Assembly (NCBI GenBank): GCA_023265925.1
Contig: JAHFSD010000002.1
Location: 2,569-66,568 of the forward strand
Source: an archaeon
GTDB taxonomy: Archaea > Nanobdellota > Nanobdellia > Woesearchaeales > GW2011-AR9
DNA length: 64,000 nt
Direction: 5' to 3'
In this document: positions 23 to 52,298 of the stretch, one piece after another
How the letters are laid out: every line of letters begins with the position of its first letter
Numbering within the stretch: position 1 is the stretch's first letter
Translations under genes and position numbers: made by a program
The notes under the pieces: model-generated
Databases searched by the model: none
What the model was told of the DNA's origin: nothing
Seen by the model: only the letters and a program-made list of their open reading frames with translations

Positions 23-700
23 GTGCTGCAGAACCAGGAACTACCCATGTTTATTTTAAGGCAAATTGAAATCGCCAGGATGTCTTTTATTGTTATCGGC
101 GCTATACTGCTGTTATTTAACAAAAAAATAAATTTTTATAGGGAAAAAATAAAGGGATTAATCCAGGATCGTCCTGAACGTCTGTCATTGATATTACAAA
201 AGGCAGATTTGAACGGCACTAAATACCTTGTAGTTACCAGCGCTATTTTATTGTTATTAACGGTGCACTATCCCTTTGGAATCGCCCAGCAATTTCAGTC
301 AGTGTTCCAAGGAAAGGCATTTTTGTCCGGGCTGGAACCGGTAAGTCTCGCTGATGCGTATCCAGAACTACAAAAGCATTTAAATGCCAACACTGCGGTT
401 CTGACCAGAGAGTACACTTGGGTTATGGCTTTTACCGAGGTTAAGCTTGATAATGTCTATCAGATCTGGAGTTTGCCCCCGTTCCCTGATCTTTCCGGAG
501 AAACTGAAAAAAAGCTGCGTGGTTTGGATGCCATTTTCGTAAGCTTCTGGCTGGAGAGCGCTCGGCCCAACCCCGGAACACAAACGTATCCCCGTTACAT
601 CTTCCATCTAAAACCATTCTTGGAAAAAGCACGTCGGGAAGGCTGGAAGGAAGAAAAAATCAGGGGTTATGGAACTATTTACCTTAAGGAAGAAACATGA
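23..700 (+). CDS. hypothetical protein with predicted TM helices; no recognisable family
   Basis: 225-aa ORF with hydrophobic stretches (MSFIVIGAILLLF, LVVTSAILLLLTV). It sits directly upstream of the radical SAM gene on the same strand. Confidence 0.3.
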   Translation: MLQNQELPMFILRQIEIARMSFIVIGAILLLFNKKINFYREKIKGLIQDRPERLSLILQKADLNGTKYLVVTSAILLLLTVHYPFGIAQQFQSVFQGKAFLSGLEPVSLADAYPELQKHLNANTAVLTREYTWVMAFTEVKLDNVYQIWSLPPFPDLSGETEKKLRGLDAIFVSFWLESARPNPGTQTYPRYIFHLKPFLEKARREGWKEEKIRGYGTIYLKEET

Positions 701-767: not shown

Positions 768-2846
768 ATGAACAAGAAAATTTTCCTGGCTGATCTGACT
801 CATACTGGTAGGGGGATACATGCCTCAACGTTCCCTTTAGGGTTGTCCTATGTGGCCAGTTATGCTAAGAAAGAACTGGGAGATCAGTACGATATTAAAG
901 TTTTCAAATTTCCAGATCATTTGGTTAAAGCAATCATTGATGAATCTCCTGATTTTCTCTGTTTTACTAATTATTGCTGGAATTTGGAATTGAGTTATAA
1001 AATGAGTTCACTGGCCAAGCAGAGAAACCCCAACTTGATTGTCGTTTCCGGGGGACCTAATTTTCCAGTGTTACCTTTAGAAAGACTCCAATTCATGAAA
1101 CAGCGGTCGGGAATCGATTTCTATATCCAGAATGAAGGCGAAATTGGCTTTGTGGAGCTGGTCAGAAAGCTGGGGGAATATAATTTTGATATAGTTGCTT
1201 TAAAACGCAAACGGGAACCAATCATTAATAGCATCTATTTATGTGGTGAAGAACTGGTGGAGGGGCCATTTCAAAGAATCCTTGATCTGAACCTTATCCC
1301 TTCTCCGTATTTAAGCGGAATCATGGACCCTTTTTTTGATATGCCTTTGACACCAATGATTGAAACGACCAGGGGATGCCCATTTACCTGTGCTTTTTGC
1401 GCTGATGGAATAATCTTTAAAAGCAGAGTGATCAGATTTAATCGTGAACGAGCGCTGGACGAGTTGAACTATATTGTAGCGAGAGTGAGAAATATGGATG
1501 AATTGATTATCACTGACCTTAATTTTGGCATGTACAAGGAGGATGTACCCATTGCAGAATATATTGCTGAGATTAAAAGAACGCATAACTGGCCGATTGT
1601 CATCGGTGCATCAACCGGTAAAAATAATAAAGAGCAGGTACTCAAAGTGATCACTATTTTAGGTGGTTCATTAGTGACCGGAGCAGCTATCCAGTCCGCT
1701 GATCCGGAAGTGCTGAAAAACATCAAACGGAACAATATTTCACTCGAAGTTTACCGTGGATTCCTCGAGTTCAGTAACTCTTTCACTAAAGATGCGGTGG
1801 CTTTCACGGAAATTATTCTGGCCTTGCCCGGGGATACCAAAGAGAAACATTTTTATTCCCTGCGCTACGGTATCGACAATGGGGCAAAAATAGTGCGGAT
1901 GTATCAGGCAATGTTATTGTCGGGAACGGAGATGGCTTCCGAGGGCATGCGCCGTGAATTCCAGTACCTGACTAAATTCCGGGTCATTCCTGGGGGAGTG
2001 GGGATTTACCAGTTTGGAGACCAGTGGTACCCCATCGCGGAAGTCGAAGAGATTATTGTCGGCAGCAAAGACCTGCCTTTTGAGGATTATGTATCCTGCC
2101 GGGTGATGAATCTCATTATTGAAACTTATTTCAACAATGCTTTGTTCAGTGAAGTTTTCTCGGCACTTAAAACTCTCCAGGTTTCTGCGTTTGATTGTTT
2201 ACTGTATATCTTTGAGCACCCCGAGTTGTACACACCAACGATGAAGAAAATCTTTAATCGCTTTATCGATGCTACCAGCAAAGACTTGTATAATTCGTAC
2301 GAGGAGGCGATGGCGCATCTCTCCCGGCCGGAAGTGATTGAAAAATATGTCTCGGGAGAACTGGGAATTAATGAATTGCTGGTTCACCGGGCGGAACTGT
2401 ATCAGGAACTGGAAGAAATCTCCACGGTACTGCTGCAGGCGGTGACTGGGTTATTGCAACAACGGGGCTTCTGGAATGACCGAGCTCAATCTTATTTTGA
2501 TCAACTGATTCAATTCATCCTCTGCCGAAAAAAGGCAATTTATCAATACGAGCAGGTCAGCGAGCAGAAATTTAATTATGACTTTAAAGCTCTCGAAGAA
2601 CTGAACTTTGAAATTGATCCCCGCCATCAGGAACTAAGCCCCTGGCCGTTTCGCTTTAAATTTTTCCATGATGAGGGCCAAAAAAGCCATATTCAAAATG
2701 CTCTTCGCCTTTACATTAACACTCCCAGTGGCATTGGGCGATTGCTGCAACGGAGTAACCTTAAAAAGATGTACCGTAATTTTGACTATTGTGCCATAAT
2801 TCAGGAAGCGCCTAAAATGTTACAATCATTAGCTCTGGAAATATAG
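768..2846 (+). CDS. B12-binding (class B) radical SAM enzyme, probable methyltransferase, with a long C-terminal extension
   Basis: N-terminal cobalamin-binding-like region (KKIFLADLTHTG...) followed by a CxxxCxxC radical SAM motif (TTRGCPFTCAFCADG). Start moved to ATG 768, which has GGAGG 11 nt upstream; the track start 669 would overlap the upstream ORF. Confidence 0.8.
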   Translation: MNKKIFLADLTHTGRGIHASTFPLGLSYVASYAKKELGDQYDIKVFKFPDHLVKAIIDESPDFLCFTNYCWNLELSYKMSSLAKQRNPNLIVVSGGPNFPVLPLERLQFMKQRSGIDFYIQNEGEIGFVELVRKLGEYNFDIVALKRKREPIINSIYLCGEELVEGPFQRILDLNLIPSPYLSGIMDPFFDMPLTPMIETTRGCPFTCAFCADGIIFKSRVIRFNRERALDELNYIVARVRNMDELIITDLNFGMYKEDVPIAEYIAEIKRTHNWPIVIGASTGKNNKEQVLKVITILGGSLVTGAAIQSADPEVLKNIKRNNISLEVYRGFLEFSNSFTKDAVAFTEIILALPGDTKEKHFYSLRYGIDNGAKIVRMYQAMLLSGTEMASEGMRREFQYLTKFRVIPGGVGIYQFGDQWYPIAEVEEIIVGSKDLPFEDYVSCRVMNLIIETYFNNALFSEVFSALKTLQVSAFDCLLYIFEHPELYTPTMKKIFNRFIDATSKDLYNSYEEAMAHLSRPEVIEKYVSGELGINELLVHRAELYQELEEISTVLLQAVTGLLQQRGFWNDRAQSYFDQLIQFILCRKKAIYQYEQVSEQKFNYDFKALEELNFEIDPRHQELSPWPFRFKFFHDEGQKSHIQNALRLYINTPSGIGRLLQRSNLKKMYRNFDYCAIIQEAPKMLQSLALEI

Positions 2847-2940
2847 AGAACTGTGCAACTTTGATTACATTTGTGCGCAGTTTTAATCTGGTAAACAGCG
2901 TGTCGAAGTGTGCTATAAGCTACGTAGTTTACCATAACGT
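2847..2940 (+). repeat. structured repeat element, copy 1 (two imperfect hairpins); candidate small RNA or MITE-like repeat
   Basis: Stem 2847-2856/2875-2884 (agaactgtgc / gcgcagtttt; two G-U wobbles) and stem 2890-2901/2922-2933. The element reappears at 45332-45520. Confidence 0.5.
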
Positions 2941-2961
2941 AAACTTGTCAGGAGAAATCTG

Positions 2962-3213
2962 ATGGTCAGGAAAGCATTTGTTGATAAAGATATCTGTATT
3001 GGCTGTACTGTCTGTAGTTCTCTCTGCCCGGATGTTTTTACCGTGAAGGAGGATCCCCATTACCAGTATGGGTTTAAGAGCTTCACCAACGATTCTGTCG
3101 ACCAACAGCCCATCGAGAAGCAGGTTCAGGAGGCTATCGACACCTGTCCGGTGCAGTGTATCAGTTGGCGGGAAAAGAAAGAGGTTCAAGAGTCTGCCCT
3201 GGTCGAGCCTTAG
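2962..3213 (+). CDS. 4Fe-4S ferredoxin (single-cluster type)
   Basis: CIGCTVCSSLCP ... CPVQC cysteine pattern in an 83-aa ORF immediately downstream of the radical SAM gene. Confidence 0.75.
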   Translation: MVRKAFVDKDICIGCTVCSSLCPDVFTVKEDPHYQYGFKSFTNDSVDQQPIEKQVQEAIDTCPVQCISWREKKEVQESALVEP

Positions 3214-4163
3214 CTGGTAGAACTGCTTCGTGGAGAGGTGGCATCCAACCCTTCTTTCACGACCTGAATAATCTTTGCGGTGGTTATTCCATATCGTTCC
3301 ATCATGCTAGCCTGGCTTCCATACCCTTCCATAAACTGGTTGGGCAAGCCGATACGCTGGAACCATTTCGGCCGTTGGTAGTGCTGCTCGGCTAAAAACT
3401 CGGCGATGGCACTCCCTAATCCGCCGATGATTGAATGTTCTTCAATGGTTACGATTACCGGAATGCGGGAAAGATGCTGCTGCAATGCTGGTATGTCTAA
3501 CGGCTTGATCGTGTGCAGATGCAGCACCGTTGCCCGAATCCCCTCCCGCTCCAGCTCAACCGCTGCCTCCAGCGCATTTTTGAGGGTGATTCCCGTGGTG
3601 ACGATCAGCGCATCCTTTCCCTCGCGCAGGCAAATTGCTTTCCCGATCGCAAATGGAAGGTCTGGACGGGAGACGATGGGATCCCCCCCCTTGGCTACCC
3701 GGATATAAATTGGTCCGGGATGATCCACAGTCAAGGGCATAAACCTTCTCATTTCTTCCGCATCGGCTGGACAAACAATAGTCAGATTAGGTATCACTCG
3801 CAAAATAGCGATATCATCGATAGCTTGGTGGGTTGGCCCTAAATTGGCATAGACGACCCCGCCGCCATTGGCAATCAGCCTGACCTTGGCTTTATGCAAA
3901 CCCAAATCGATCACGATCTGCTCAAAACAGCGCCGGGTTAGAAACGTGGCAATGGTATTAACGTAAGGAATTTTTCCCTCTAATGCTAACCCTGCTGCCA
4001 TCCCAATAATATTTGCCTCGTAAATTCCTTCCATAAAAAAGCGTTCGGGCATCTCCTCTTTAAACTGCTTTAGAACACCAAATCCTAAATCCGAGCCAAT
4101 GAAAAAAACTTTATCATTCTTCTTCGCCAGTTCATACACCATATCTAACACTACTTTTCTCAT
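3210..4163 (-). CDS. transketolase, C-terminal (pyrimidine-binding) subunit
   Basis: MRKVVLDMVYELAKKNDKVFFIGSDLG...FFMEGIYEANIIGMAAGLALEGKIPYV is typical of split transketolase TktB. Overlaps the upstream gene by 4 bp. Confidence 0.8.
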   Translation of the reverse strand: MRKVVLDMVYELAKKNDKVFFIGSDLGFGVLKQFKEEMPERFFMEGIYEANIIGMAAGLALEGKIPYVNTIATFLTRRCFEQIVIDLGLHKAKVRLIANGGGVVYANLGPTHQAIDDIAILRVIPNLTIVCPADAEEMRRFMPLTVDHPGPIYIRVAKGGDPIVSRPDLPFAIGKAICLREGKDALIVTTGITLKNALEAAVELEREGIRATVLHLHTIKPLDIPALQQHLSRIPVIVTIEEHSIIGGLGSAIAEFLAEQHYQRPKWFQRIGLPNQFMEGYGSQASMMERYGITTAKIIQVVKEGLDATSPRSSSTS

Positions 4164-6061
4164 GCTGACCTCAATCCGGCATATAATGCTTTAAATTCAT
4201 CAGCGGTAATGGCGCTCTTATGATGCCAGGCAAAATTTCTCTCGAGGAAAGGAAGACCCTTGCCCTTAACAGTATGACAAATGATTGCGCTCGGTTTGGC
4301 TTGTTCGACTGGCAAGTGGGAGAAGACATCGTCAAGCTGATCAATATCATGCCCATCAACTTCCCGAACACCAAACCCAAAACTTCTCCATTTATCAGCC
4401 AATGGTTCTAAATCCTGTACTTCAAACGTGGAATTACAGGACTGCTGTTTGTTATAATCAATGATGACGGTGAGATTGCTGAGTTTATGCTTCCCGGCAC
4501 ATAAAGCTGCTTCCCAGATAGAACCCTCATTAGACTCTCCATCACCGATCACCACAAACGTACGAGAACTGGTTTTCTCATATTTGGCATTAATGGCAAA
4601 GCCCACTCCTATCGGCAGACCATGACCCAAACTTCCCGTTGATACCTCCACGCCAGGAATAAGGTGTTCGGGATGTCCTCCGAGGATGCCATCACTCTTA
4701 CAAAACTTCCACAATTCAGCTTCAGGGAAGAAACCTTTCTCAGCGAGGATAACATACAAAGCGAGACAGCCATGTCCTTTACTCAGAATAAACCGATCCC
4801 GATAAGGCCAGCGGTGATTTTGATGATCATAGTGTAGAATCTTGTCGTATAGTACTCTCAACACTTCCATGATCGAGAAGGCTGAAGGGAGGTGCCCACG
4901 CTGGGTCGATTTTTGTACCATTTCCACCACTTTCTCTCGTAGTTGTATTGATCGCTCATCCAATTTCACTCTACTCACGGGCGTGGTATAGAAATAAGGA
5001 AAACTCTCATATTCCCGCAAAATTTTAGCCAGCAGGGCTTCGGCTTTAATTAACTGTTGCTGCTGGCGCTGTTCTCTTTCTATTCTTTCCTGATCGGCAA
5101 ACTCCCTTCGCTGCAAATATTCCGGCACAAACTCATTGAGTAAGATCGTGCACCACTTTAACCCAAACAAAGGATAGACCAATTCTACTCGTCCCAGCAA
5201 ATTCGGATGCCCGGTAAACACTTCCGGCATAGTGAGCACAAATTCCCGTTGTAAATCATGAGATAACGACATTCCTGGATGCAACAGGAAGTCAGCGACA
5301 GTCTTCGCTGGATCATCCCAGCCAAAATATTCAAAATCTATAAATACTATCTGGCCGTCATCTAAGCGCAGGGCATTATGAAAGCCAAAATCAGAAGGAC
5401 TTAGTATTCGTTCTTCCGGGCTAAGGTCGGCATAAAAAGAAAAACCGTGCCGGTTTAAAGTATACTTACACCACTTGACAATTTTTTCAAAGGCCGGCCT
5501 GAACTGCTGCTGTAAGAAATCATGCAGTTTATGTTCTATCACTGTTTGTTGCGGAACGGCCTTAAGGCGCTGTAACCGCTGTTCTATTGAGGCCACCATG
5601 GCCTGCAGCGAAAAACAGGCTTCCGATGCCGGAGAGAAAAGAGTGCTTCCTGGTCGTGCTTTAAGTTGATTTATGTTCGCCAGAAACTGACCAGCCACCG
5701 TAATATCATCACTGGTAACTTCTTCGGAAGAAATTTTTTTTCCGGGTATAAACTCATAAATTCCCCAGCCTTGCTCCAGGTTCATGGCGATGGGCTTAGG
5801 GACGCAGGTCAGGTTATGCTGCCAGAGAAATTGCAGAGTGTTAAACTCGACTCCGAGCCGGTTTCGGTGATCAAAATTATCACGAAAATAGTGCTTGGCG
5901 ACATAATTCGTTCCATCGGCACACGGAACTTTATACACCCGACTATTCCTTCCCCCCCCTATTTTGTGGAGAGAGAGAGCATTTTTTCCTACTAAGTCTG
6001 AGATGATCGGGAGAAGTATGTCGCCGGTTTTTTCACTATTAGTGGGGGAAGAAGTCGTCAT
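4160..6061 (-). CDS. fusion protein: APH/choline-kinase-like phosphotransferase domain + transketolase N-terminal (ThDP-binding) subunit
   Basis: N-terminal half has kinase motifs (DFGFHNALRLDDGQIVFIDFEYFGWDD). C-terminal half has SKGHGCLALY...GSLGHGLPIGVGFAINAKY...VVIGDGESNEGSIWEAA (transketolase N). Start set to MTTSSPTNSEK (ATG at 6059-6061) rather than 6163. Confidence 0.7.
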   Translation of the reverse strand: MTTSSPTNSEKTGDILLPIISDLVGKNALSLHKIGGGRNSRVYKVPCADGTNYVAKHYFRDNFDHRNRLGVEFNTLQFLWQHNLTCVPKPIAMNLEQGWGIYEFIPGKKISSEEVTSDDITVAGQFLANINQLKARPGSTLFSPASEACFSLQAMVASIEQRLQRLKAVPQQTVIEHKLHDFLQQQFRPAFEKIVKWCKYTLNRHGFSFYADLSPEERILSPSDFGFHNALRLDDGQIVFIDFEYFGWDDPAKTVADFLLHPGMSLSHDLQREFVLTMPEVFTGHPNLLGRVELVYPLFGLKWCTILLNEFVPEYLQRREFADQERIEREQRQQQQLIKAEALLAKILREYESFPYFYTTPVSRVKLDERSIQLREKVVEMVQKSTQRGHLPSAFSIMEVLRVLYDKILHYDHQNHRWPYRDRFILSKGHGCLALYVILAEKGFFPEAELWKFCKSDGILGGHPEHLIPGVEVSTGSLGHGLPIGVGFAINAKYEKTSSRTFVVIGDGESNEGSIWEAALCAGKHKLSNLTVIIDYNKQQSCNSTFEVQDLEPLADKWRSFGFGVREVDGHDIDQLDDVFSHLPVEQAKPSAIICHTVKGKGLPFLERNFAWHHKSAITADEFKALYAGLRSA

Positions 6062-6755
6062 GTAAAATCCTCCAATGGTGAAATAAAAAGATCTTCTCAA
6101 TGGATGCTTGCCGGGCCTGAGGATCATATAACCACTTCCGCACGCCTGCGGGAAAATCAGCATTTACAAAGACCTCGATCAAATCATCAATAAAATCAGT
6201 GCAACCTAATTGAATAAGGCGCTTTACTTTTTCCTCTTGCGTCGACTCAAAATAGACCTGCTCGGGAGCCAGGCCTAAAGTAGGGTCATCAAAAAAGTGC
6301 TGCTCCCGCATCCACGACCATGCCGCTTCCCGCAAATTGACTCCTCCTCCGGATAAGTTAGAGTACATCGTCTTGTGGCTGATAATATAGACTGGAACAT
6401 GGTGCTGCTTACAGGCCGTCAAAAAATCCCGCACTCCTTGGTGTAAAGTAGCCCCCGCAATGGCGTTACCATACGCTTCCACCTGGATTTCCTGCCATTG
6501 TAACTCTCCGCCCGGAAGTTTTCGAATCGTATCCCGGACAGTTCGTTTGTTTTTTGGCACTGCCGAAGAGATCAGGCCTTTTTGTAATGCCAGAGAATGT
6601 ATCACGGGTTCATAACTAATAATCGTATTATCAAAATCAATGCCAATGATCAGTGGTCTTACCGGCTGGGGAGCGGGGGATATTAAGGGATCCATCATTG
6701 TAGGAAAATAGATAATATTTATACTTAAAGATGGTCGAGTTTGCTTTATAAACAT
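6039..6755 (-). CDS. HAD-superfamily phosphatase-like protein
   Basis: DxD motif I (IGIDFDNTI) and a C-terminal DD motif (CTDFIDDL). Confidence 0.5.
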   Translation of the reverse strand: MFIKQTRPSLSINIIYFPTMMDPLISPAPQPVRPLIIGIDFDNTIISYEPVIHSLALQKGLISSAVPKNKRTVRDTIRKLPGGELQWQEIQVEAYGNAIAGATLHQGVRDFLTACKQHHVPVYIISHKTMYSNLSGGGVNLREAAWSWMREQHFFDDPTLGLAPEQVYFESTQEEKVKRLIQLGCTDFIDDLIEVFVNADFPAGVRKWLYDPQARQASIEKIFLFHHWRILHDDFFPH

Positions 6756-6793: not shown

Positions 6794-7909
6794 TTAGGCC
6801 CAGGCCTCAAAGAACTTCTTAACCTGTTTTATAACCAAGTCTACTTCTTCATCAGTCAACTCCGGATAGATCGGAAGACTTAAGATTCTCTTGCCTTGTC
6901 TTTCACATACGGGAAAATCTCCTTCTTTGTATCCCCAGCTTTGAGCAGCTGGTTGCAGGTGTATTGGAATGGGATAATGTATTTTGGTTTCAATACCCTG
7001 CTCGAGGAGGTAGTTCTGTAATTCGTCTCTGGCAGCACACTCGATTATGAACGTATGATATACCGGCAGCTCATACGGTTGATCCCGGGGGACTTTTACT
7101 AGGCCAGCAAGACTTTCCGTATATTTCAAGGCGATGTTTCTTATTCTCTCATTCCACTGGTCTAAATATTTTAGTTTTATGTTCACTACAGCCGCTTGGA
7201 TACAATCTAATCTGGAGTTGTATCCCCACAATTCACTTTCGTTTCGATTTCGTAATCCGTGGTTCCGCAGTTTGATGATTTTTTCGTATACTTCTCTATT
7301 GTTGGTGGTAATCGCCCCCCCATCTCCGGCTGCGTTGAGATTTTTAAGGGGATGAAAGCTGAAGCAACCGGCGATTCCGAAGGACCCCACCATTTTCCCA
7401 TAATATTTTGCTCCCACTGCTTGTGCTACATCTTCTATCACAGGTATTTTATGTTTATCGGCAATCTCTAAAATCCTGTTCATCTCCGCTGGCCTTCCCG
7501 TCAAATGGATTGGAATGATGGCTTTAGTTCTAGATGTAATCGCTGCTTCGATCAGGTCCGGGTCGATATTGAAATCTTCTTTCACATCTATGAATACTGG
7601 AGTGGCCCCCACCGCGACGATGGCTCCGACTGTTGCCAGGAAAGAATTGGGAGCGGTGATCACTTCATCACCGGAGCCGATATTCAGGCTCTTAAGGCAG
7701 AGAATGATGGCATCGGTTCCATTGGCTACACCCAGAGCATAGCCAGTGCCGCAGTACGTCGTGAAGTTTTTTTCAAATTCTTGAAGCGTTTTTCCTAAGA
7801 TGAATTCTCCCGATTCAAAAAGAGGGATAATGCTCTTCAGGATTTTTTCACGAAGCGGTTTGAACTGCCGGTGAAAATTAGTGTATTTAATTGTGTTCAC
7901 GGTTATCAC
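6794..7909 (-). CDS. DegT/DnrJ/EryC1/StrS-family PLP-dependent sugar aminotransferase
   Basis: SFHPLKNL (PLP lysine), DGGAITTN, and family-typical N-terminus. Confidence 0.85.
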   Translation of the reverse strand: MITVNTIKYTNFHRQFKPLREKILKSIIPLFESGEFILGKTLQEFEKNFTTYCGTGYALGVANGTDAIILCLKSLNIGSGDEVITAPNSFLATVGAIVAVGATPVFIDVKEDFNIDPDLIEAAITSRTKAIIPIHLTGRPAEMNRILEIADKHKIPVIEDVAQAVGAKYYGKMVGSFGIAGCFSFHPLKNLNAAGDGGAITTNNREVYEKIIKLRNHGLRNRNESELWGYNSRLDCIQAAVVNIKLKYLDQWNERIRNIALKYTESLAGLVKVPRDQPYELPVYHTFIIECAARDELQNYLLEQGIETKIHYPIPIHLQPAAQSWGYKEGDFPVCERQGKRILSLPIYPELTDEEVDLVIKQVKKFFEAWA

Positions 7910-7933
7910 CGAAGGGTTTTCTGGGAAATCATT

Positions 7934-9043
7934 TCAGGGCAAAATGTAATGGTAAAATGTGGTAATAGTTTCAATAACATATTCTATTTGTTCCGGCGTA
8001 AGGTGCTGGTGCACTGGAAGCGAAATTATTTTTCTGGCTTGCTCTTCGGCAACCATAAAATCACCCGTCTGATAGCCCAAGTACTGGCTGGCCTGTTGAA
8101 GATGTTGTGGTAGGGGGTAATGTATTTTACAGTCAATCTCCCGCTCTCGAAGATAACGGTATAATTCGTCCCGGCGTTCGGCCATAATCACATAATTGTG
8201 ATACACGTGTTTTACGCCTGGCGTTCGTGGAGGGATGGTTATTTCTGATATCTTTGCGAGCGCTTGATCATAGCGGTTGGCGTGGTGGATTTTGCGGTTA
8301 ATAATCCAATCTACCTCTTTCATCAGGTGCAGCCCGACAATCGCCTGGAGGGGATCCAGTCTGCTGTTATAAGCATAAAACAGGCATTCATCCCGATTTT
8401 TCAGCCCGTGATTTCGCAATAGGAGAAGTTTGTCTCGCAGCTGTTCCGAATTGGTTGTAATCACTCCTCCATCCCCCCAGACATTTATTGGTTTTAGAGG
8501 ATGAAGACTGAAACAACCGGCATCGCCGAATGATCCGGTTCTTTTTCCATTGATTTCGGCACCAATCGCCATACAGGCGTCTTCTATTACTGTGAGGTTA
8601 TGTTTTCTCGCCAATTGGCTTATTTTTTCCATCTCTGCGGGACAGCCATGCCAATGCACTGGTAAGATCGCTTTCGTTTTGGGAGTTATGGTTTTCTCTA
8701 TTAAGTCTGGGTCGAGAGTATAATCTTCTTTGACATCGACATACACGGGGCGCGCTCCCACGGTTACAATGGCACCGATCGTAGCAAAGAAAGTGCTGGG
8801 AGTGGTAATCACTTCATCACCAACCCCAATACCAAAAGCGATGAGTGATAATCGTAAGGCATCAGTTCCCGAAGCAACGCCGATAGCAAATTTGGTGTGG
8901 CAGAGTGTGGCAAAGTTCTGTTCAAATTCTTCAAGATGTTTGCCTAAAGTAAATTCTCCGGAACGGATCAGGCTTTTGATATCGTTCAAAATAGGATCAG
9001 GGTCAGTAAATTGTTCTGACAGGTAAGAGTAACTTACTTTCAT
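7934..9043 (-). CDS. DegT/DnrJ/EryC1/StrS-family PLP-dependent sugar aminotransferase (paralog)
   Basis: SLHPLKPINVWGDGGVITTN; overall collinear with 6794-7909. Confidence 0.85.
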   Translation of the reverse strand: MKVSYSYLSEQFTDPDPILNDIKSLIRSGEFTLGKHLEEFEQNFATLCHTKFAIGVASGTDALRLSLIAFGIGVGDEVITTPSTFFATIGAIVTVGARPVYVDVKEDYTLDPDLIEKTITPKTKAILPVHWHGCPAEMEKISQLARKHNLTVIEDACMAIGAEINGKRTGSFGDAGCFSLHPLKPINVWGDGGVITTNSEQLRDKLLLLRNHGLKNRDECLFYAYNSRLDPLQAIVGLHLMKEVDWIINRKIHHANRYDQALAKISEITIPPRTPGVKHVYHNYVIMAERRDELYRYLREREIDCKIHYPLPQHLQQASQYLGYQTGDFMVAEEQARKIISLPVHQHLTPEQIEYVIETITTFYHYILP

Positions 9044-9182
9044 GATGATTTCTCTTGTTGCTTTTTTATTACTCCTGATTATTGCGTTCTATGAAGGAAC
9101 CATATTAAAGAAGCATATTTTCTTACTTTAATAAAGTTTAAATAGGCTGGTGGAACCGAATGGAGCAAGGTTTAAATACTTA

Positions 9183-10226
9183 ATGAAAAAGGCTATCATC
9201 ACCGGCGGAGCAGGATTTATCGGATCGCATTTGGTAGAATTATTGCTCCAGGAAGGCTTTACCGTGATTGTTCTGGATAATATGTCCAACGGGCAGTTAG
9301 ATAATGTAGAGTTGTTTAAAGATAATCCACGATATCACTTCTATCAGGTTAATTTGGCAGAAGAATTCGATGACTCTGTTTTTAAGGATATAGATTATGT
9401 CTTCCACCTCGCTGCTTTAGCCGATATTGTCCCTTCCATTGACGAGCCGTTCAAGTATCATCAAGCCAACGTCACGGCCACGATTCGCGTTCTGGAAGCC
9501 TGCCGGAAATATGGCGTAAAAAAGTTAGTATATAGTGCCTCTAATTCCTGCTACGGAATTCCTGACTCCTATCCCACTCCGGAGACGGCGGAAATCAAGC
9601 CGGAATATCCTTATGCCTTTATGAAAGCCATTGCCGAGCAGTATGTGCTGTTCTGGGGCAAAGTGTACAACATTCCCGTAATCTCCCTGCGCTATTTTAA
9701 TGTCTTTGGAACGAGAGCAAGAACGAATAATACCTATGGAGCCGTGTTTAAAGTCTTCCTGACCCAGAAACTGCATGACCAGCCGTTAACGATTGTCGGT
9801 GATGGCAGGCAAACTCGTGATTTTACGTACGTCACGGATATTGCTCGGGCCAATTTACTGGCGGCCGAATCAGAGATACAGGGAGAAATTATCAACATCG
9901 CGACGGGGAAACCACAGTCAGTTAATTATCTCGCCCAGTTAATTGGCGGTTCCACCGTGAGTATTCCCCGGCGTCCTGGAGAGCCTGATTCGACGCATGC
10001 GGATATTTCCAAAGCCAAAGCGCTTTTAGGATGGGAACCAGAAGTTTCCTTTGAAGAAGGCGTAAAAATCATGCTGGAAAATATTGACTATTGGCGAACG
10101 GCGCCATTATGGAATTCTGAATCTATCGGGAAAGCGACGGAAAACTGGTTTCGATATCTTGCTAAAGAAAATCCTACCAAGGGAAATACTGCCAGAGAAA
10201 ATACTGCCGGAGGAAACGATGAGTAA
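9183..10226 (+). CDS. NAD-dependent nucleotide-sugar epimerase/dehydratase (extended SDR)
   Basis: ITGGAGFIGSHLVELLL Rossmann motif and YxxxK-type SDR. Start set at MKKAIITGG. Confidence 0.8.
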   Translation: MKKAIITGGAGFIGSHLVELLLQEGFTVIVLDNMSNGQLDNVELFKDNPRYHFYQVNLAEEFDDSVFKDIDYVFHLAALADIVPSIDEPFKYHQANVTATIRVLEACRKYGVKKLVYSASNSCYGIPDSYPTPETAEIKPEYPYAFMKAIAEQYVLFWGKVYNIPVISLRYFNVFGTRARTNNTYGAVFKVFLTQKLHDQPLTIVGDGRQTRDFTYVTDIARANLLAAESEIQGEIINIATGKPQSVNYLAQLIGGSTVSIPRRPGEPDSTHADISKAKALLGWEPEVSFEEGVKIMLENIDYWRTAPLWNSESIGKATENWFRYLAKENPTKGNTARENTAGGNDE

Positions 10227-11238
10227 CGCTAAACAGCGAGTTCTCATTACCGGGGGAGCAGGCTATGTTGGTTCAGTGTTAGTCCCTTTACTTGTCAATA
10301 AAGGATATCCCGTCACGGTACTGGACACTTTTTGGTTTTGGGATTCACCGCAGCAGTATCAAGAGACTATTGGGTTAAGCAACGCTGCATTATTACGCCT
10401 TGTCCAGGGAGATCTCCGCAACAAGGAAGATATCCGTCAAGCCCTGACAGAAGTAGAAAGTGTCATTCATCTGGCCTGTATTTCTAATGATCCCAGTTCA
10501 GATTTAGATGCGGGGTTTACGCATGCGGTGAATTATACCGGTTCGCTGAATGTTATTGATCTTGCTAAGGAAAAAGGTGTGAAACGGTTCATCTATGCTT
10601 CATCCAGCAGTGTCTATGGAATTAAAAGTGAACCAAATGTTACGGAGGATCTCCCTTTAGAACCGTTGACGCAGTATTCCAAGTTAAAAGTAGAAGTGGA
10701 ACATTATCTCCTGCATCGGCTGGATGATGATTTTAAAGGGGTCATTATTCGTCCTTCCACGGTCTGCGGCTATTCTCCCCGGCAACGGCTCGATGTGGTG
10801 GTAAATCTTTTGACCAATTTAGCCCTGAACAAAGGAAAAATTAAAGTGATGGGTGGAAACCAATTGCGCCCAAATATTCACATGAAAGATATGGTGCGAT
10901 TGTATGAGCTGTTGCTGGAAGTGCCCATCGATAAAATCAACAAAAAAATTTACAATGCCGGCTACGAGAATCGAACGGTGCTGGAACTTGCCCTGCTGGT
11001 TAAAGAGGTGATGGGCAAGGTCACCATGGAGGTTGAAGAAACTACTGATCTTCGGTCTTATCATGTTTGTTCTGATAAAATCAGGCAGGAAATTGGCTTT
11101 GCGTCAGAGCATACGGTGAAGGGGGCGATTATGGAGCTGAAAGAAGCTTTTGAACAGGGTAAAATTAAAAATAGTGATGATGAGAATAATTTTAACGTGA
11201 AGAGGATGAAAACGTTGTTGGAACGAAGGGAAACATGA
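10219..11238 (+). CDS. NAD-dependent nucleotide-sugar epimerase/dehydratase (extended SDR)
   Basis: VLITGGAGYVGSVL; YASSSSVYG. Start at MSNAKQ with GGAGG 9 nt upstream. Overlaps the previous gene by 8 bp. Confidence 0.8.
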   Translation: MSNAKQRVLITGGAGYVGSVLVPLLVNKGYPVTVLDTFWFWDSPQQYQETIGLSNAALLRLVQGDLRNKEDIRQALTEVESVIHLACISNDPSSDLDAGFTHAVNYTGSLNVIDLAKEKGVKRFIYASSSSVYGIKSEPNVTEDLPLEPLTQYSKLKVEVEHYLLHRLDDDFKGVIIRPSTVCGYSPRQRLDVVVNLLTNLALNKGKIKVMGGNQLRPNIHMKDMVRLYELLLEVPIDKINKKIYNAGYENRTVLELALLVKEVMGKVTMEVEETTDLRSYHVCSDKIRQEIGFASEHTVKGAIMELKEAFEQGKIKNSDDENNFNVKRMKTLLERRET

Positions 11239-13217: not shown

Positions 13218-13802
13218 ATGACCAAAGATATCATCGTTGAATACCATCAGGGAAGATGCATTGGTGCACAGAAATGTATTGAAGCTGCACCAGCTTACTT
13301 CTCTTTTGATGGGGAAAAAGCCGTCTTGTTGCTTTCTCAGCAGGAAAATGGTAGCAGCGTTCTCCGCCTGCGGATGAATGAAGAACAGCTTTTGCGGATC
13401 AGGAAAGCAGCGGAATTGTGCCCGGTGAATGCCATTAAAGTAGCCGACGCCGAAGGCAACATTCTCGTTTCCGATACGGTCGAAGTTCAGCAGCAGGGAT
13501 TACGGGAAATCACCGCAGAATACGATGACTTGAAAGAATTTGTTATGGATAAAAAAGGATATTTTCTCATCCGCATTGACCAAAGCACCAACAAAATTGA
13601 AGTGGCCTTTTGCCCCGAATTAAACAAAATCGTGGTCAAAGTAACCGGCAGGAAGCCGTTAGAGATTTACCAGACCATTATTAAGCAGGGCCTGATCTCA
13701 AGGTTAGATCATGCTGCCTACCTTGGCCGGGAATTGCAAAAGGCCTACATTGCTTTGCAGAAGAATATCCTTTATGTACAAGATGATGAGCTTGTTCTTT
13801 AA
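13218..13802 (+). CDS. ferredoxin-like domain protein (N-terminal Cx5C...CP mono-cluster ferredoxin domain + uncharacterised C-terminal domain)
   Basis: RCIGAQKCIEAAP...ELCPVNAI. Divergent from the radical SAM gene 13827-15620. Confidence 0.45.
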   Translation: MTKDIIVEYHQGRCIGAQKCIEAAPAYFSFDGEKAVLLLSQQENGSSVLRLRMNEEQLLRIRKAAELCPVNAIKVADAEGNILVSDTVEVQQQGLREITAEYDDLKEFVMDKKGYFLIRIDQSTNKIEVAFCPELNKIVVKVTGRKPLEIYQTIIKQGLISRLDHAAYLGRELQKAYIALQKNILYVQDDELVL

Positions 13803-13826: not shown

Positions 13827-15620
13827 TTAGGCCGTGATCATTTGAGCAGTCTGGTCGACGATGGCCTTTTCCACCTGAATAGCCTGGTCCACACTGATCT
13901 TTCCTCCCTGAACTATCACCTGGACAGCTCCATTGTCCTGCCCATTTCCAGAAACCTCTTTCTTTCCACCAAGGTTACTCTTCTGCCGTGATTCTTTATC
14001 ATAGCGGCGCGCTCCCCTAAACTTGTAATCGCCTTCCAGGTACAGCCGACGATACCCTTCAATAATCTGGTTAGCTTCTTCCAAATCACCTCCAGCATTA
14101 CGAAAATGATGAAAGACAAGCTCTTTGTTTGCCTCAAAAAGCATCTCATTACATTCCTGGTCGGAAAAGCGTGTGAAATTAAATGTTATTAGGTCTGAAT
14201 TCCTGAACTTCTTAAAGAAATCATCCGGTCCTGAGATGATACCTTTCTCTATCGCCTGGTAATATAATGGTGATCCCGGATAAGGAGTAGGCGGTCTGAT
14301 GGTGCGCACCTGATCAAAACGGGTATAGGTTTTAATGGCTTTCACATTCTTCCAAAGAGTTTCTTTTGTATCTTTTTCGAAACCCCAGATAAAGTTAAGT
14401 CCCATGCCGATCTCCACTTTATTTGCTACTTGGAGCGCTTTGAGGTTATCCTCCGCCGTCACCCTCTTGTTCATCTCATCGAGAACAGTTTGATCAACAC
14501 TCTCAAAGCCGATATTGACAAACAAGCATCCGGCCTTTTTTAAGGATAAAGCGACCTCTTCATCGAATAGCGGCGCCCGGGAATTACAGCACCACTTAAC
14601 ATTCAAATTATTTTCTTTGAGCAGCCGTTCAAATTCAAAAACTCTGTTCCGGGGAAAGGTTGATAATTCTTCCAGGAAGTGAAAATAAGTTATACCATAT
14701 TTTGCGGTCAGGTATTTCATCTCTTTAATGATCTCATTCAGGTTGCGCAGGCGCAGGCCTTTCTCGATTCGGTAACAGAAACTGCAGGTATCAGTGCACC
14801 CCCGATTAGCGATGATCGCACAGGTTTTTTCATCACTATCCATCCCCGCCATTCGCCAGCTTTGCGTATAGCTTTCCATGGGAAAGAGGTCCCAGGCAGG
14901 CCAGGGCAGCGAGTCTAAATCACGAAAGACTGGGCGGCGGGGATTTACCTTGACCTGATCACTTTCCCAATAAGTAATTCCTTTGATCTCGCTCAAGCGG
15001 CGCTTGCCCAGTTTGGCATCCATAACTTCAACAATACTGTGCTCAGCTTCTCCCATCAACACCAAATCAGCTCTTGTCCGCTGCAGCATATATTCTGGAA
15101 TGGGCGTTGGACCAGGGCCGCCCAGGAAAAACCAGGCATTTTTTTTGTATTTGTTCACGGATTCGCACAAGCCAACAATGGTTTCTTCAAATCGGGCCGG
15201 CATGAATCCTGCCCCGATAAGGTCATATTCGCTGTTCAAAAGCTTCTTCTCCAGTTGGGCATTAGTGTAATGGAAGACGTCCATGCAGTACACTTCAACG
15301 CTATAGCCTGCTGTTTGCAGCATGGCTGCCAGGTAGCCATAAGCCAGAGGAAAGACATTAAAATCCTGATAAACATCATGGATTATGAGGAGGACGTTTT
15401 TCTTCCAGGGATGGTTGATTTCAATACCTGTTGAAATTGAAGGAATAATTCCCGTTGAAGAACTACCGGCTAAAGAATCGCCTCCTAAAGAATTACCAGT
15501 TAAAGAATCACTTTCTAAAGAATTACCAGCTAAAGAAATACGTGCTGAAGATTGAGCTGAATTTCCATTCATTTCACCATTCCCTCCAACTGTAGGTATA
15601 GGTAAACTATCCACCATCAT
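13827..15620 (-). CDS. B12-binding (class B) radical SAM enzyme with an N-terminal pentapeptide-repeat low-complexity region
   Basis: NRGCTDTCSFCYR (CxxxCxxC) and an upstream B12-binding-like region. The N-terminus is encoded by 15-nt tandem repeats (GNSL/GDSL). Confidence 0.8.
   Translation of the reverse strand: MMVDSLPIPTVGGNGEMNGNSAQSSARISLAGNSLESDSLTGNSLGGDSLAGSSSTGIIPSISTGIEINHPWKKNVLLIIHDVYQDFNVFPLAYGYLAAMLQTAGYSVEVYCMDVFHYTNAQLEKKLLNSEYDLIGAGFMPARFEETIVGLCESVNKYKKNAWFFLGGPGPTPIPEYMLQRTRADLVLMGEAEHSIVEVMDAKLGKRRLSEIKGITYWESDQVKVNPRRPVFRDLDSLPWPAWDLFPMESYTQSWRMAGMDSDEKTCAIIANRGCTDTCSFCYRIEKGLRLRNLNEIIKEMKYLTAKYGITYFHFLEELSTFPRNRVFEFERLLKENNLNVKWCCNSRAPLFDEEVALSLKKAGCLFVNIGFESVDQTVLDEMNKRVTAEDNLKALQVANKVEIGMGLNFIWGFEKDTKETLWKNVKAIKTYTRFDQVRTIRPPTPYPGSPLYYQAIEKGIISGPDDFFKKFRNSDLITFNFTRFSDQECNEMLFEANKELVFHHFRNAGGDLEEANQIIEGYRRLYLEGDYKFRGARRYDKESRQKSNLGGKKEVSGNGQDNGAVQVIVQGGKISVDQAIQVEKAIVDQTAQMITA
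15469..15555 (-). repeat. in-frame 15-nt tandem repeat (about 5 units) encoding xxDSL/GNSL pentapeptide repeats at the 5' end of the radical SAM gene
   Basis: taaagaattaccagY / taaagaatcRc units seen directly in the sequence. Confidence 0.6.
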
Positions 15621-22487: not shown

Positions 22488-23249
22488 ATGATTAACGGAA
22501 AACGAGTTTTGGCGTACATCCCCGCGCGAAGCGGCTCAAAAGGGATTAAAGATAAGAATATCATCGACCTATGCGGCAAACCGCTGATTGCCTATACCAT
22601 TGAGGCAGCAAGGCAGAGTAAATACATCGATCGGCTGATTGTTTCCACTGATTCCGCAGAGTACGCGTCCGTTGCTAGAAAATATGGGGCGGAAGTACCT
22701 TTCCTGCGTCCCGTTGAGTTAGCAACAGACACCTCTCCAGAGATGCATACGACTTTGCATCTTATGGAGTGGTTGGAAAAAGAAGGCTTGGCAGCATTTG
22801 ATATAATTATACGCCTGCAGGGGACGTCTCCCTTGCGCACGGCCAAAGATATTGACGGGGCTTTAACATTGTTTTTCCACAAAAATGCCGATACGATTAT
22901 CGGGGTCTGTGAGGCGAGAACCACCCCACTGGCGATGAATACCCTACCCGCCGATCACTCCATGCATGATTTTATTCCGGAATGGATCAAAAACAAAAAT
23001 AGGCAGGAGTTGCCTACCTATTATCAGCTTAACGGCGCCATTTTTATTGCGAACTGGAAATTTATCAGGGAACAAAAGAGTTGGTTTTCTGGAAAAAGTT
23101 ATGCTTATATCATGCCTCAAGAGCGATCCGTAGATATAGATAATCCGCTAGATTTAGAGTTTGCGAAGTTTTTGCTGGAGAACAAGTTAAAATCCAAAGA
23201 ATTTTCCACCGGTCCACAACAGGTGAGAAAATTGCCTTTGTGCGTCTGA
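22488..23249 (+). CDS. CMP-nonulosonic acid synthetase (acylneuraminate cytidylyltransferase family, NeuA/LegF/PseF-like)
   Basis: N-terminal AYIPARSGSKGIKDKNI is the CTP_transf_3 signature. Confidence 0.85.
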   Translation: MINGKRVLAYIPARSGSKGIKDKNIIDLCGKPLIAYTIEAARQSKYIDRLIVSTDSAEYASVARKYGAEVPFLRPVELATDTSPEMHTTLHLMEWLEKEGLAAFDIIIRLQGTSPLRTAKDIDGALTLFFHKNADTIIGVCEARTTPLAMNTLPADHSMHDFIPEWIKNKNRQELPTYYQLNGAIFIANWKFIREQKSWFSGKSYAYIMPQERSVDIDNPLDLEFAKFLLENKLKSKEFSTGPQQVRKLPLCV

Positions 23250-52297: not shown

Positions 52298-52298
52298 C

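Follow-up and report, generated by a model that had tools for sequence, protein, structure and literature searches.

The methylases among the class-B (cobalamin-dependent) radical SAM enzymes are known almost wholly from antibiotic, cofactor and lipid pathways. TokK, ThnK and CysS are all radical methylases. TokK and ThnK (PDB 7KDX, 7KDY), the sequential C6 methylases of carbapenems, have three domains: a Rossmann domain for cobalamin, the radical SAM core and a further large one. The substrate of TokK, which serves antibiotic formation, is a pantetheinylated carbapenam. CysS (PDB 9N1B-D), the iterative methylase of cystobactamid formation, acts on a carrier- or pantetheine-bound methoxy-aminobenzoate. 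In TokK and CysS the third domain builds the substrate channel and binds the pantetheine arm. [quoted passage not shown] GenK, GenD1 and MoeK5, which act on antibiotic sugars, and Fom3 are classed as Csp3-methyltransferases (2026 review); they belong to secondary metabolism, not to cell-surface glycans. Class B also contains non-methylases, e.g., OxsB, BchE and ThnL. BchE is a cyclase. [quoted passage not shown]

Here we describe a class-B radical SAM gene and the ferredoxin gene which follows it on an archaeal stretch of 64,000 nucleotides, analysed as a whole and called the window. The enzyme belongs to a large, unnamed and biochemically uncharacterised family which is found in bacterial and archaeal sugar clusters; marine Thaumarchaeota and single cells of SAR11 are among the carriers. 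What is new is the family; the enzyme class is a known one, and the system is not of a new kind. Literature searches on cobalamin-dependent radical SAM enzymes in connection with nonulosonates (also legionaminic and pseudaminic acid), transketolase, heptose, O-antigen or reductants returned no paper on this family, and the 2026 review lists nothing comparable. On balance we favour a radical methylase of the TokK/ThnK/CysS type, fed by the ferredoxin as a presumably low-potential donor, which would C-methylate a nucleotide-activated sugar intermediate. The features on which the argument is built are collected in Table 1.

Table 1. Features of the window, in order of position (nt, numbered from the first letter of the window).
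Feature	Position	Strand	Basis or remark
Last 225 aa of a protein of 684 aa which has hydrophobic segments; gene directly upstream of the radical SAM gene	23-700	+	Contig continued upstream by locus L001
Class-B (cobalamin-dependent) radical SAM enzyme, 692 aa, TokK/CysS-like three-domain architecture	768-2846	+	Pfam, NCBIfam, PDB sequence search, AlphaFold, Foldseek
Cobalamin-binding Rossmann domain, aa 21-131, with invariant Trp71 (nt 978-980)	828-1160	+	Pfam, alignments, papers
Cys204-X3-Cys208-X2-Cys211, predicted ligands of the radical SAM [4Fe-4S] cluster	1377-1400	+	Read from sequence
Third (C-terminal) domain, aa ~392-675, mostly helical	1941-2792	+	Family conservation, structural match to TokK and CysS
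95-nt double-hairpin repeat between radical SAM and ferredoxin genes; supplies the radical SAM stop TAG (2844-2846)	2842-2936	+	Copy comparison, folding
Single-cluster [4Fe-4S]/[3Fe-4S]-type ferredoxin, 83 aa, proposed dedicated electron donor	2962-3213	+	Pfam, PDB search, conserved adjacency
Transketolase C-terminal subunit (pyrimidine-binding and C-terminal domains), conserved cassette	3210-4163	-	Pfam, NCBIfam
APH-family kinase fused to transketolase N-terminal (ThDP-binding) subunit, conserved cassette	4160-6163	-	Pfam, NCBIfam
Small protein with weak HAD-IB phosphatase resemblance, conserved cassette	6039-6755	-	TIGR01489, E 8e-5, far below cut-off
Two DegT/PseC-type sugar aminotransferases (6794-7909, 7934-9043), conserved cassette	6794-9043	-	Profile searches
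Two SDR-type nucleotide-sugar epimerase/dehydratases, conserved cassette	9150-11238	+	Profile searches
NeuB	21043-22062		18 kb from the radical SAM gene
CMP-sugar synthetase	22488-23249		
78-aa carrier protein with GFLDS motif	25987-26223		
Adenylating enzyme	28249-29886		
Phosphopantetheinyl transferase	29861-30253		
Second repeat copy, extra ~96-nt insert in the loop of hairpin 2	45327-45518	+	Copy comparison
Divergent third member of the repeat family	49984-50080	+	nhmmer E 0.2; MFE -42.2 kcal/mol, z -9.4

The radical SAM enzyme and its described relatives

The mechanical open reading frame spans 669-2846. We place the start at ATG 768 and not at the edge of the frame because a GAGGAGG lies 11 nt upstream, homologous proteins open with MKxKIYFADLTH at this very position, and the preceding gene ends at 700. 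Two Pfam domains are found above their cut-offs, B12-binding (PF02310, aa 21-131, E 4.7e-14, 52.7 bits against 32.1) and Radical_SAM (PF04055, aa 198-359, E 4.9e-10, 40.3 bits against 29.5). The three cysteines of the cluster motif are invariant across 80 homologues. Residues ~390-675 match no Pfam model, yet they are kept throughout the family. Thus the preliminary description, made from the letters alone, was correct in reading a class-B enzyme with a CxxxCxxC motif, a B12-like N-terminal domain and a C-terminal extension of ~300 aa. As to the three profiles it named, PF02310 and PF04055 are present; DUF4070, its candidate for the extension, was not found at E<=0.01, and a third domain of the TokK/CysS type takes its place. 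The one identity which it had set against itself, an oxidative cyclase like BchE or HemN, is excluded: the BchE model (TIGR02026) gives 39.1 bits against a cut-off of 481, and a HemN-like identity was looked for and not found. The enzyme is of the cobalamin type, with predicted binding of cobalamin and of the cluster.

In a sequence search of the PDB, CysS and TokK are the sole matches (E ~2e-35), CysS at the top with E 2.3e-35 over aa 60-390 and TokK with E 2.6e-35 over aa 37-364. The AlphaFold model (pLDDT 91.4, pTM 0.91) extends this likeness over the full length: Foldseek aligns it with TokK at TM 0.71/0.74 (~697 columns) and with CysS at TM 0.67/0.73 (~719 columns), third domain included, whereas TsrM, OxsB and MgmA reach only 0.39-0.47 (query-normalised), TsrM over ~460 columns. 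Sequence identity to TokK and CysS is only ~20-30%. Nevertheless, HMMER alignments place Trp71, which is invariant in the family, on the tryptophan below the cobalt in TokK and CysS. Seven basic residues, K285, R321, R395, R405, R445, K588 and R670, are invariant as well. A second active-site residue of TokK differs. Trp215, which stands by the cobalamin and the substrate and is important for TokK catalysis, corresponds to Ile198; CysS likewise has an isoleucine in this alignment column, therefore Trp215 may not define the TokK/ThnK/CysS group.

The best NCBIfam match is the KedN5 family of methylcobalamin-dependent radical SAM C-methyltransferases (NF033712; 134.2 bits, E 4.4e-39, aa 20-391), far ahead of the runner-up at 47 bits. 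This match covers the cobalamin and radical SAM domains, i.e., model positions 14-389 of 624, and leaves the C-terminal 300 aa of the enzyme unmatched. With 134 bits against a cut-off of 700 the enzyme is not itself a member of KedN5. Among characterised enzymes, TokK, ThnK, CysS and the KedN5 family stand closest. The preliminary description had named GenK, GenD1 and Fom3 as the type and had allowed for C- or N-methylation. Neither holds up: GenK, GenD1, MoeK5 and Fom3 share with our proposal the radical C-methylation of an sp3 carbon, a likeness of chemistry alone, as none has a PDB entry or NCBIfam model matching the enzyme; N-methylation is, according to the literature, not a reaction known from the radical class-B methylases in this clade.

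Might the cobalamin serve something other than methyl transfer? The non-methylases of class B, such as OxsB and BchE, provide precedents for a sugar chemistry in which cobalamin is not a methyl carrier, e.g., a rearrangement, ring contraction, epimerisation or oxidation. The missing Trp215 fits such a view, as does the fact that many loci of the family are already equipped for methylation, with ordinary SAM-dependent C-methyltransferases in 24 of 59 and class-I methyltransferases also in 24 of 59. Nonetheless we consider this unlikely. All characterised enzymes which possess the whole three-domain fold together with the tryptophan under the cobalt, namely TokK, ThnK and CysS, are radical methylases, the best family model is that of a methylcobalamin-dependent C-methyltransferase, and OxsB and TsrM fit the model much worse than TokK and CysS do. 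A radical methylase is the reading which we retain.

The ferredoxin and the repeat which separates it from its partner

A small downstream ferredoxin had been noted at the outset and is borne out by two single-cluster Pfam models, Fer4_13 (E 1.5e-13, 51.6 bits, cut-off 24.5) and Fer4_15 (E 6.5e-12, 46.4 bits, cut-off 22.4). The cysteine motif is C12xxC15xxC18xxxC22P ... C62PxxxC66, and a ribosome-binding site, AGGAG at 2950-2954, is positioned 7 nt ahead of the ATG. The nearest solved structures are those of D. africanus Fd I (8.9e-11), the P. furiosus ferredoxin and the T. maritima ferredoxin. To our knowledge, TokK has no dedicated ferredoxin gene.

We examined eight places which carry either a relative of the radical SAM enzyme with at least ~61% identity or the nearest ferredoxin orthologue. 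In seven of them (the window, L049, L084, L085, L003/L083, L004 and the P0279 contig) the radical SAM gene is immediately followed, on the same strand, by a ferredoxin homologue. The intergenic gaps range from -4 to ~41 nt, stop and start codons often overlap or abut, and the adjacency spans several archaeal lineages. A database-wide search yielded 13 ferredoxin homologues in total at E<=1e-8. Every one of these with a sufficiently long contig adjoins a class-B radical SAM gene, and a 48% identical ferredoxin in a DPANN archaeon is encoded directly upstream of a different class-B enzyme. No ferredoxin was found beside the radical SAM gene in ~76 more distant loci; the ferredoxin is therefore a lineage-specific addition.

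Its absence from most family members could also be taken to mean that the ferredoxin is a housekeeping protein which stands here by chance or serves another enzyme of the cluster, since anaerobes use single-cluster ferredoxins like this one as general carriers. In our view this is quite improbable. It would leave unexplained the seven adjacencies among eight related places with their overlapping or abutting codons across several lineages, and also why the few detectable orthologues all adjoin class-B enzymes, even where gene order and radical SAM family differ; the second class-B radical SAM gene of the window, flanked by a ferredoxin-domain protein as well, speaks in the same direction. By comparative genomics the ferredoxin is a dedicated partner of the radical SAM enzyme, as the preliminary description had surmised, and its putative role is that of electron donor.

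The two radical SAM/ferredoxin pairs of the window do not stem from a recent duplication, since the two ferredoxin domains have no detectable mutual similarity and the two class-B enzymes are only distant relatives.

The radical SAM and ferredoxin genes of the window are separated by a structured repeat (MFE -27.9 kcal/mol, z -2.5). Positions 2834-2936 are 88-91% identical to 45319-45517, and another copy is located in an unrelated metagenome contig (L086). The core common to these three copies runs from TATAGAG to TACCATA. The divergent member of the family in the window retains the TATAGAGAA head and the two-hairpin plan, with the 7-mer AATTCCG in place of AACTGCG in all four arms. At gathering thresholds Rfam gave no family anywhere in the window, thus the repeat is not a described RNA. 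A metagenome scan with a 29-nt repeat pattern had no match, and a shorter pattern gave one copy, that in L086. A tRNA scan found none.

According to the preliminary description the last codons and the stop of the radical SAM gene fall inside a repeat at 2847-2940. The overlap is real, but these coordinates are ~5 nt too far to the right and, taken literally, exclude the stop. Because the three-copy core is 2842-2936, the stop TAG and two of the three bases of the last codon, ATA (2841-2843), lie within it; the looser two-copy boundary at 2834 puts the last three codons inside. The consequences for the protein are small, as the tail touched by the repeat is disordered (pLDDT below 50) and unconserved. 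As to an ancestral stop that overlapped the ferredoxin start, excision of 95 nt would let the gene end with ...ATC TGA overlapping the ferredoxin ATG, an outcome which depends on the boundaries chosen; excision of 93 nt, assuming a TA duplication, would give a TAA at 2940-2942. The repeat inserted into a once tightly coupled gene pair and changed only a tail which is disordered and not conserved.

Gene neighbourhood and the candidate substrate

The sugar-cluster setting assumed at the outset is borne out in the family. Sugar-pathway genes are located within 10 kb of the radical SAM gene in 51 of 59 large loci. Within the same distance the transketolase cassette is present in 19 and heptose genes (SIS, PfkB, HldE-like) in 20 of the 59, either of them in 32. 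The commonest conserved partners are the kinase-transketolase/HAD/aminotransferase/SDR cassette and heptose-nucleotide genes; nonulosonate genes are rarer. The entire cassette of the window recurs together with the radical SAM gene as a single operon in loci L037, L028, L008, L054 and L060. Near the radical SAM gene in other loci the transketolase C-terminal subunit has homologues with 50-64% identity, the small HAD-like protein, which has no Pfam match, has homologues in 9 loci, and the first SDR has 50-59% identical homologues in many. The kinase-transketolase gene probably starts near 6061; the same gene is called with 633 aa on an ENA contig. The truncated protein upstream matches no Pfam family, and homologues are found near the radical SAM gene in L003/L083 and L085.

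One homologue, P0008, is fused to a nucleotidyltransferase resembling HldE domain II. It is the sole informative fusion; a look through the best 150 representatives added one intein-bearing homologue and N-terminal extensions without domains. The substrate of Fom3 is CMP-activated, a logic which the nucleotidyltransferase fusion in P0008 parallels. No neighbour gene is universal across the loci, hence the substrate cannot be read from context.

Two other substrates have to be weighed here. The preliminary description had predicted methylation of the nonulosonic acid or its precursor; in this cluster that would be a sialic-acid-like acid, or the compound directly before it, from the pathway of the NeuB and CMP-transferase genes. 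Such genes are indeed present in the window, homologues of NeuB and/or the CMP-sugar synthetase occur near the radical SAM gene in 13 of 83 loci, and in L069 and L075 the synthetase homologue follows it directly. However, within 10 kb NeuB or CMP-transferase genes are present in only 10 of the 59 large loci, to be compared with 32 for transketolase or heptose genes, and most family members have none. In the window these genes lie 18 kb off, past other gene sets, and it is the transketolase cassette, not the nonulosonate genes, which stays contiguous with the radical SAM gene. The link to nonulosonates is thus weak, and we regard a substrate from this pathway as rather improbable.

The second is suggested by the relatives themselves. 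TokK and CysS both use pantetheine-tethered substrates and not sugar nucleotides, which counts against sugar methylation. Since the enzyme resembles them over its full length, including the domain which binds the pantetheine arm, and since the window encodes an adenylating enzyme, a carrier protein, a phosphopantetheinyl transferase and N-acyltransferases, one could imagine that it methylates an acyl or aminoacyl group on the phosphopantetheinyl carrier protein and that the modified acyl is then passed on to an amino sugar. Yet the adenylating-enzyme, carrier-protein and transferase genes are 23-27 kb away, and a search of 86 sequences, namely the contig of the window and ~85 further loci, gave no homologue of any of them outside that contig, whereas transketolase, aminotransferase, SDR and heptose genes do recur near the radical SAM gene. 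Elsewhere the family, unlike CysS, goes without carrier-protein genes and, unlike TokK, resides in surface-glycan clusters. We give the carrier-bound substrate little credence and prefer a nucleotide-activated sugar.

The proposed reaction and its possible meaning for envelope glycans

From domain content, fold, conserved residues and neighbourhood statistics we infer the following chemistry, with steps taken from the work on TokK and CysS. A first SAM would methylate cob(I)alamin to methylcobalamin. A second SAM would be cleaved reductively at the [4Fe-4S] cluster, and the resulting 5'-deoxyadenosyl radical would abstract hydrogen from a substrate carbon which is unactivated and sp3-hybridised. 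The methyl group would then move from methylcobalamin to the substrate radical and leave cob(II)alamin. Reduction of the cluster and of cob(II) to cob(I) would together require two low-potential electrons per turnover, and both may be supplied by the ferredoxin. Considering how poorly the BchE ferredoxins form cob(I)alamin, a single-cluster ferredoxin may not cover both reductions. The substrate would most likely come from the adjacent cassette or from the heptose-nucleotide pathway seen beside homologues, probably as a nucleotide-activated higher-carbon or amino-deoxy sugar bound for an archaeal surface or N-linked glycan; the window also encodes an AglB oligosaccharyltransferase.

What we report is the annotation, well supported by comparison of sequences and predicted structures, of a family which is so far uncharacterised. 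Beyond this, we tentatively raise the possibility that here, for the first time, a cobalamin-dependent radical SAM family is dedicated to glycans of the cell surface. The enzyme would then add a single C-methyl group or more than one, with ethyl or isopropyl branches perhaps built up stepwise as by TokK and CysS, to a nucleotide-activated heptose-like or amino-deoxy sugar from a transketolase/kinase/phosphatase route, and the products would be found in N-glycans of archaea and in surface polysaccharides of bacteria. A broad family of the TokK/CysS type in surface-glycan clusters would extend class-B chemistry to the sugars of the cell envelope. It would predict unusual C-alkylated sugars which in glycan analyses are unassigned to any enzyme. 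The archaeal members, with a ferredoxin of their own, would offer a natural, genetically defined candidate reductant for enzymes which are hard to activate in vitro. Finally, given that SAR11 and marine Thaumarchaeota are among the carriers, the structure of the cell envelope would be tied to the supply of vitamin B12.

The radical SAM enzyme and its structural relatives

The mechanical open reading frame of the radical SAM (rSAM) gene spans 669-2846 on the + strand, and some gene callers use a 725-aa version of the protein. The biological start is ATG 768: GAGGAGG lies 11 nt upstream, the preceding gene ends at 700, and the homologues all start at an equivalent MKxKIYFADLTH. A class-B (cobalamin) enzyme had been proposed in the preliminary description, and indeed the B12-binding and Radical_SAM domains both exceed the Pfam cut-offs. 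The expected CxxxCxxC motif is present as Cys204-X3-Cys208-X2-Cys211, invariant in 80 homologues. The C-terminal extension is there too, as ~300 further residues without a Pfam model. DUF4070, which had been considered for this protein, was not detected in the Pfam search. In P0265, a homologue of 930 aa, an intein with an HNH endonuclease is inserted roughly where the CX3CX2C cluster motif lies.

Among NCBIfam models the best match is KedN5, a family of methylcobalamin-dependent radical SAM C-methyltransferases, yet the score of 134 bits (aa 20-391) is far under its cut-off of 700 bits; the runner-up reaches 47 bits and the BchE model 39 bits. A sequence search of the PDB returned CysS and TokK as sole matches (E ~2e-35, first 390 aa). 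AlphaFold modelling with 80 homologues gave a confident structure (pLDDT 91.4, pTM 0.91). When it was compared with the PDB by Foldseek, TokK ranked first (TM 0.71/0.74, ~697 aligned columns), ahead of CysS (0.67/0.73); TsrM, MgmA, and OxsB came next with 0.39-0.47 (normalised to query). The extension is therefore a third domain of the TokK/CysS type, which in TokK and CysS forms the substrate channel jointly with the other two domains. Trp71 is invariant across the family and aligns with TokK Trp76 and CysS Trp75, positioned 3.8 A under the cobalt. Such a Trp is reported to be common to TokK, ThnK, and CysS, whereas other class-B methylases are without it. TokK Trp215 is not conserved; Ile198 occupies the aligned position. 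Every enzyme of this structural type characterised so far is a radical C-methylase that acts on unactivated sp3 carbons, often several successive times. Thus the rSAM is a class-B enzyme of the TokK/CysS type, without DUF4070, and by analogy probably catalyses methylation.

Features of the window discussed here (protein domains by residue)
Feature	Position	Strand	Remarks
rSAM	768-2846	+	692 aa, start ATG 768
B12-binding domain of rSAM	aa 21-131		E 4.7e-14
Radical_SAM domain of rSAM	aa 198-359		E 4.9e-10
Repeat, copy 1	2834-2936		core 2842-2936, 95 nt
Ferredoxin	2962-3213	+	83 aa; matches single-cluster models Fer4_13, Fer4_15
APH-kinase/ThDP-half of split transketolase fusion	4160-6163	-	
Second class-B rSAM pair	13218-13802 and 13827-15620	+ and -	tail to tail; one partner a ferredoxin-DUF4346 fusion
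Acylation module	24258-30253	-	aminoglycoside-3-N-acetyltransferase-like protein, 78-aa carrier protein, GNAT, 5-formyl-THF cyclo-ligase, formyltransferase, adenylating enzyme, phosphopantetheinyl transferase
STT3/AglB oligosaccharyltransferase	37160-40294	-	fused C-terminal PPIC-type peptidyl-prolyl isomerase
ATP-citrate-lyase-like protein	40366-42183	-	CoA-ligase and citrate-synthase C-terminal domains
26-nt direct repeat	45287-45312 and 45668-45693		25/26 identical
Repeat, copy 2	45319-45517		88-91% identity to copy 1
Divergent repeat member	49984-50080		weak nhmmer match
Archaeal ribosomal protein operon	50227-62042	+	L3, L14, L24, S4e, L5, S8, L6, L32e, L19e, S5

The ferredoxin partner

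The ATG of the ferredoxin is preceded by AGGAG, 7 nt before it. The + strand unit ends with this gene; those which follow converge from the - strand. Among solved structures it is closest to the monocluster ferredoxins of Desulfovibrio africanus, Pyrococcus furiosus, and Thermotoga maritima. Loci with rSAM homologues, 82 in all, were searched by tblastn, phmmer, a Cys-motif scan, and an HMM from four orthologues. Of these, only the window's own contig (L001), L049, L003, and L004 have a ferredoxin homologue immediately downstream of the rSAM in the same orientation. Look-ups of gene context contributed L084, with a gap of 16 nt, L085, where the genes overlap by 4 nt, and L083 (gap 0), which is the same place as L003. 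The only close relative without a ferredoxin is P0008 (~64% identity), which instead has a fused nucleotidyltransferase domain.

Searching from the ferredoxin side, 5.8 billion proteins yielded only 13 homologues at E<=1e-8, and every one on an informative contig adjoins a class-B rSAM. In the P0279 contig the ferredoxin starts 1 nt past a split copy of the rSAM, directly 3' of it, with convergent transketolase genes as in the window. P0283, a ferredoxin of a DPANN archaeon with 48% identity, is encoded immediately upstream of another, different class-B rSAM within a polysaccharide cluster. These two contexts indicate that the partnership was kept through rearrangement. At more distant rSAM loci a ferredoxin was found in 0 of ~76, which limits the partnership to an archaeal sub-lineage. 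Within it, adjacency is conserved and the earlier view of a ferredoxin dedicated to this rSAM is borne out. In the related archaeal P0279 contig (ENA) the rSAM is annotated as two genes overlapping by 4 nt, of 296 aa (B12-binding domain) and 404 aa (no Pfam match), i.e., either a frameshift/pseudogene or a naturally split enzyme.

We infer that the ferredoxin serves as electron donor to the rSAM: it would supply the two electrons needed, one to cleave SAM and one to reduce cob(II) to cob(I). This proposal follows from the electron need of the accepted mechanism and from BchE, the activity of which ferredoxins were shown to drive; in the same study ferredoxins made little cob(I)alamin.

The second class-B rSAM of the window is unrelated to the first, with generic BchE/HpnJ/PhpK-like scores. 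In the neighbouring protein DUF4346, a pterin-binding-like C-terminus that MtrA and dihydropteroate-synthase-like proteins also have, is fused to a ferredoxin domain of the single-cluster kind. The two genes lie tail to tail, and the cluster therefore contains two B12-rSAM/ferredoxin pairs. Mutual similarity between the two ferredoxin domains was not detectable.

A double-hairpin repeat at the rSAM stop codon

The rSAM stop codon, TAG 2844-2846, falls within the repeat core, so its earlier placement inside a repeat was correct; the element itself had been set ~5 nt too far to the right (2847-2940). The core, TATAGAG...TACCATA, is common to three copies, the third being found in a metagenome contig scan on an unrelated 180-kb contig (L086 3153-3247, - strand). 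Folding gives two hairpins (-27.9 kcal/mol, z -2.5). In copy 2 (45327-45518) the loop of hairpin 2 holds an extra insert of ~96 nt, itself a hairpin. The family shares the head TATAGAGAA and the double-hairpin plan. All four arms of each element are built on one 7-mer: three copies use AACTGCG, and the divergent member, which has the same head and plan (-42.2 kcal/mol, z -9.4), uses AATTCCG. Thus the arms co-vary and alternative pairings are possible. Rfam has no family match anywhere in the window; the element may be mobile, REP-like, or an RNA. The 26-nt direct repeat flanks copy 2 plus ~150 nt of further sequence and looks like a duplication from an insertion event.

For the rSAM protein the overlap is incidental and of little consequence: the last conserved block, ...MYRxFDY, ends at aa ~674, the tails beyond it (3-40 aa) are unrelated among homologues, and residues 678-692 are disordered in the AlphaFold model. 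The rSAM-ferredoxin gap is -4 to ~41 nt in relatives vs 115 nt in the window, a difference accounted for by the 95-nt element. The element therefore is an insertion into a formerly tightly coupled gene pair, which probably was coupled translationally.

Glycan context, candidate substrates, and spread of the family

The window is archaeal, as evident from ribosomal proteins S4e, L32e, and L19e and the archaeal forms of L3, L14, L6, and S5. It is a surface or N-glycan factory, in agreement with the sugar cluster initially described, and besides the oligosaccharyltransferase it encodes NeuB, a CMP-sugar synthetase, three DegT aminotransferases, several SDRs, several glycosyltransferases, a formyltransferase, and a 5-formyl-THF cyclo-ligase. 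The acylation module suggests N-formyl and carrier-protein-delivered N-acyl decoration of amino sugars; its carrier protein has a GFLDS motif and, as an ORF <120 aa, is easily missed. This carrier-protein module is absent from the other loci searched. The ATP-citrate-lyase-like gene directly adjoins the glycosylation genes.

Neighbourhoods were counted within 10 kb of the rSAM in 59 loci of at least 15 kb each. Sugar-pathway genes occur in 51, SDRs in 36, DegT aminotransferases in 23, classical sugar C-methyltransferases in 24, and cupins in 22. A transketolase pair is present in 19 and heptose-pathway genes (SIS, PfkB, HldE-like) in 20, either of them in 32 of the 59. NeuB or CMP-synthetase is present in 10/59. 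Consequently, the nonulosonic acid or its precursor, the substrate first suggested, is linked to the rSAM more weakly than are the transketolase or heptose modules. L069 and L075 have a CMP-synthetase homologue directly after the rSAM; in P0008 the fused domain is HldE-domain-II-like and lies beside SIS and PfkB genes.

In the window the neighbours are TktC, the APH-kinase-TktN fusion, a HAD-like protein, two DegT aminotransferases, and two SDRs. This cassette recurs together with the rSAM, as one uninterrupted operon on a single strand, in Thalassospiraceae (L037), Acidobacteria (L028), Bacteriovoracaceae (L008), Rhodospirillaceae (L054), and SAR11 (L060), with 50-64% identity of transketolase, kinase, and first SDR in most of these. 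The fusion is found beside the HAD-like protein from Proteobacteria to Thaumarchaeota (50-61% identity). No function is known to us for this fusion, which may synthesise a higher-carbon ketose or aldose and subsequently 1-phosphorylate it. Together, a C-C bond-forming enzyme, kinase, HAD phosphatase, nucleotidyltransferase, SDRs, and aminotransferase are reminiscent of the pathway to NDP-heptose and of that to GDP-octose in lincosamide biosynthesis. The rSAM substrate would be a sugar from a higher-carbon or amino-deoxy pathway in nucleotide-activated form. Taken together, the initial observation at this locus is confirmed and its interpretation partly supported.

A word-indexed search with the rSAM gave 1,777 matches; the best 120 all cover the full length with an identity of at least 49% and carry either no name or a generic one. 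When 50%-identity representatives were searched exhaustively, 11,511 matched at E<=1e-3, of which 1,098 reached E<=1e-30; the best 150 are mostly near full-length (aa ~4-672) with identity down to ~30%, some two dozen being fragments or partial matches. A scan of species-representative genomes located 241 loci. Archaeal carriers include DPANN, Methanosarcinales, and marine Thaumarchaeota (L072, L074, L076, L082); bacterial carriers include Omnitrophota, Elusimicrobia, Planctomycetes, Acidobacteria, many Alphaproteobacteria, and a Synechococcaceae genome. Among the Alphaproteobacteria are about ten single-cell genomes of SAR11/Pelagibacteraceae (L026, L029, L030, L034, L036, L038, L040, L046, L060, L068). 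Neither literature searches nor a 2026 review on B12-dependent radical SAM enzymes turned up a glycan- or polysaccharide-linked member.

The rSAM family, then, is a new, uncharacterised one inside a known enzyme class, to which archaea have added a ferredoxin. To our knowledge SAR11 is generally described as having no need for B12, and therefore a cobalamin-dependent enzyme within SAR11 glycan islands would be notable.
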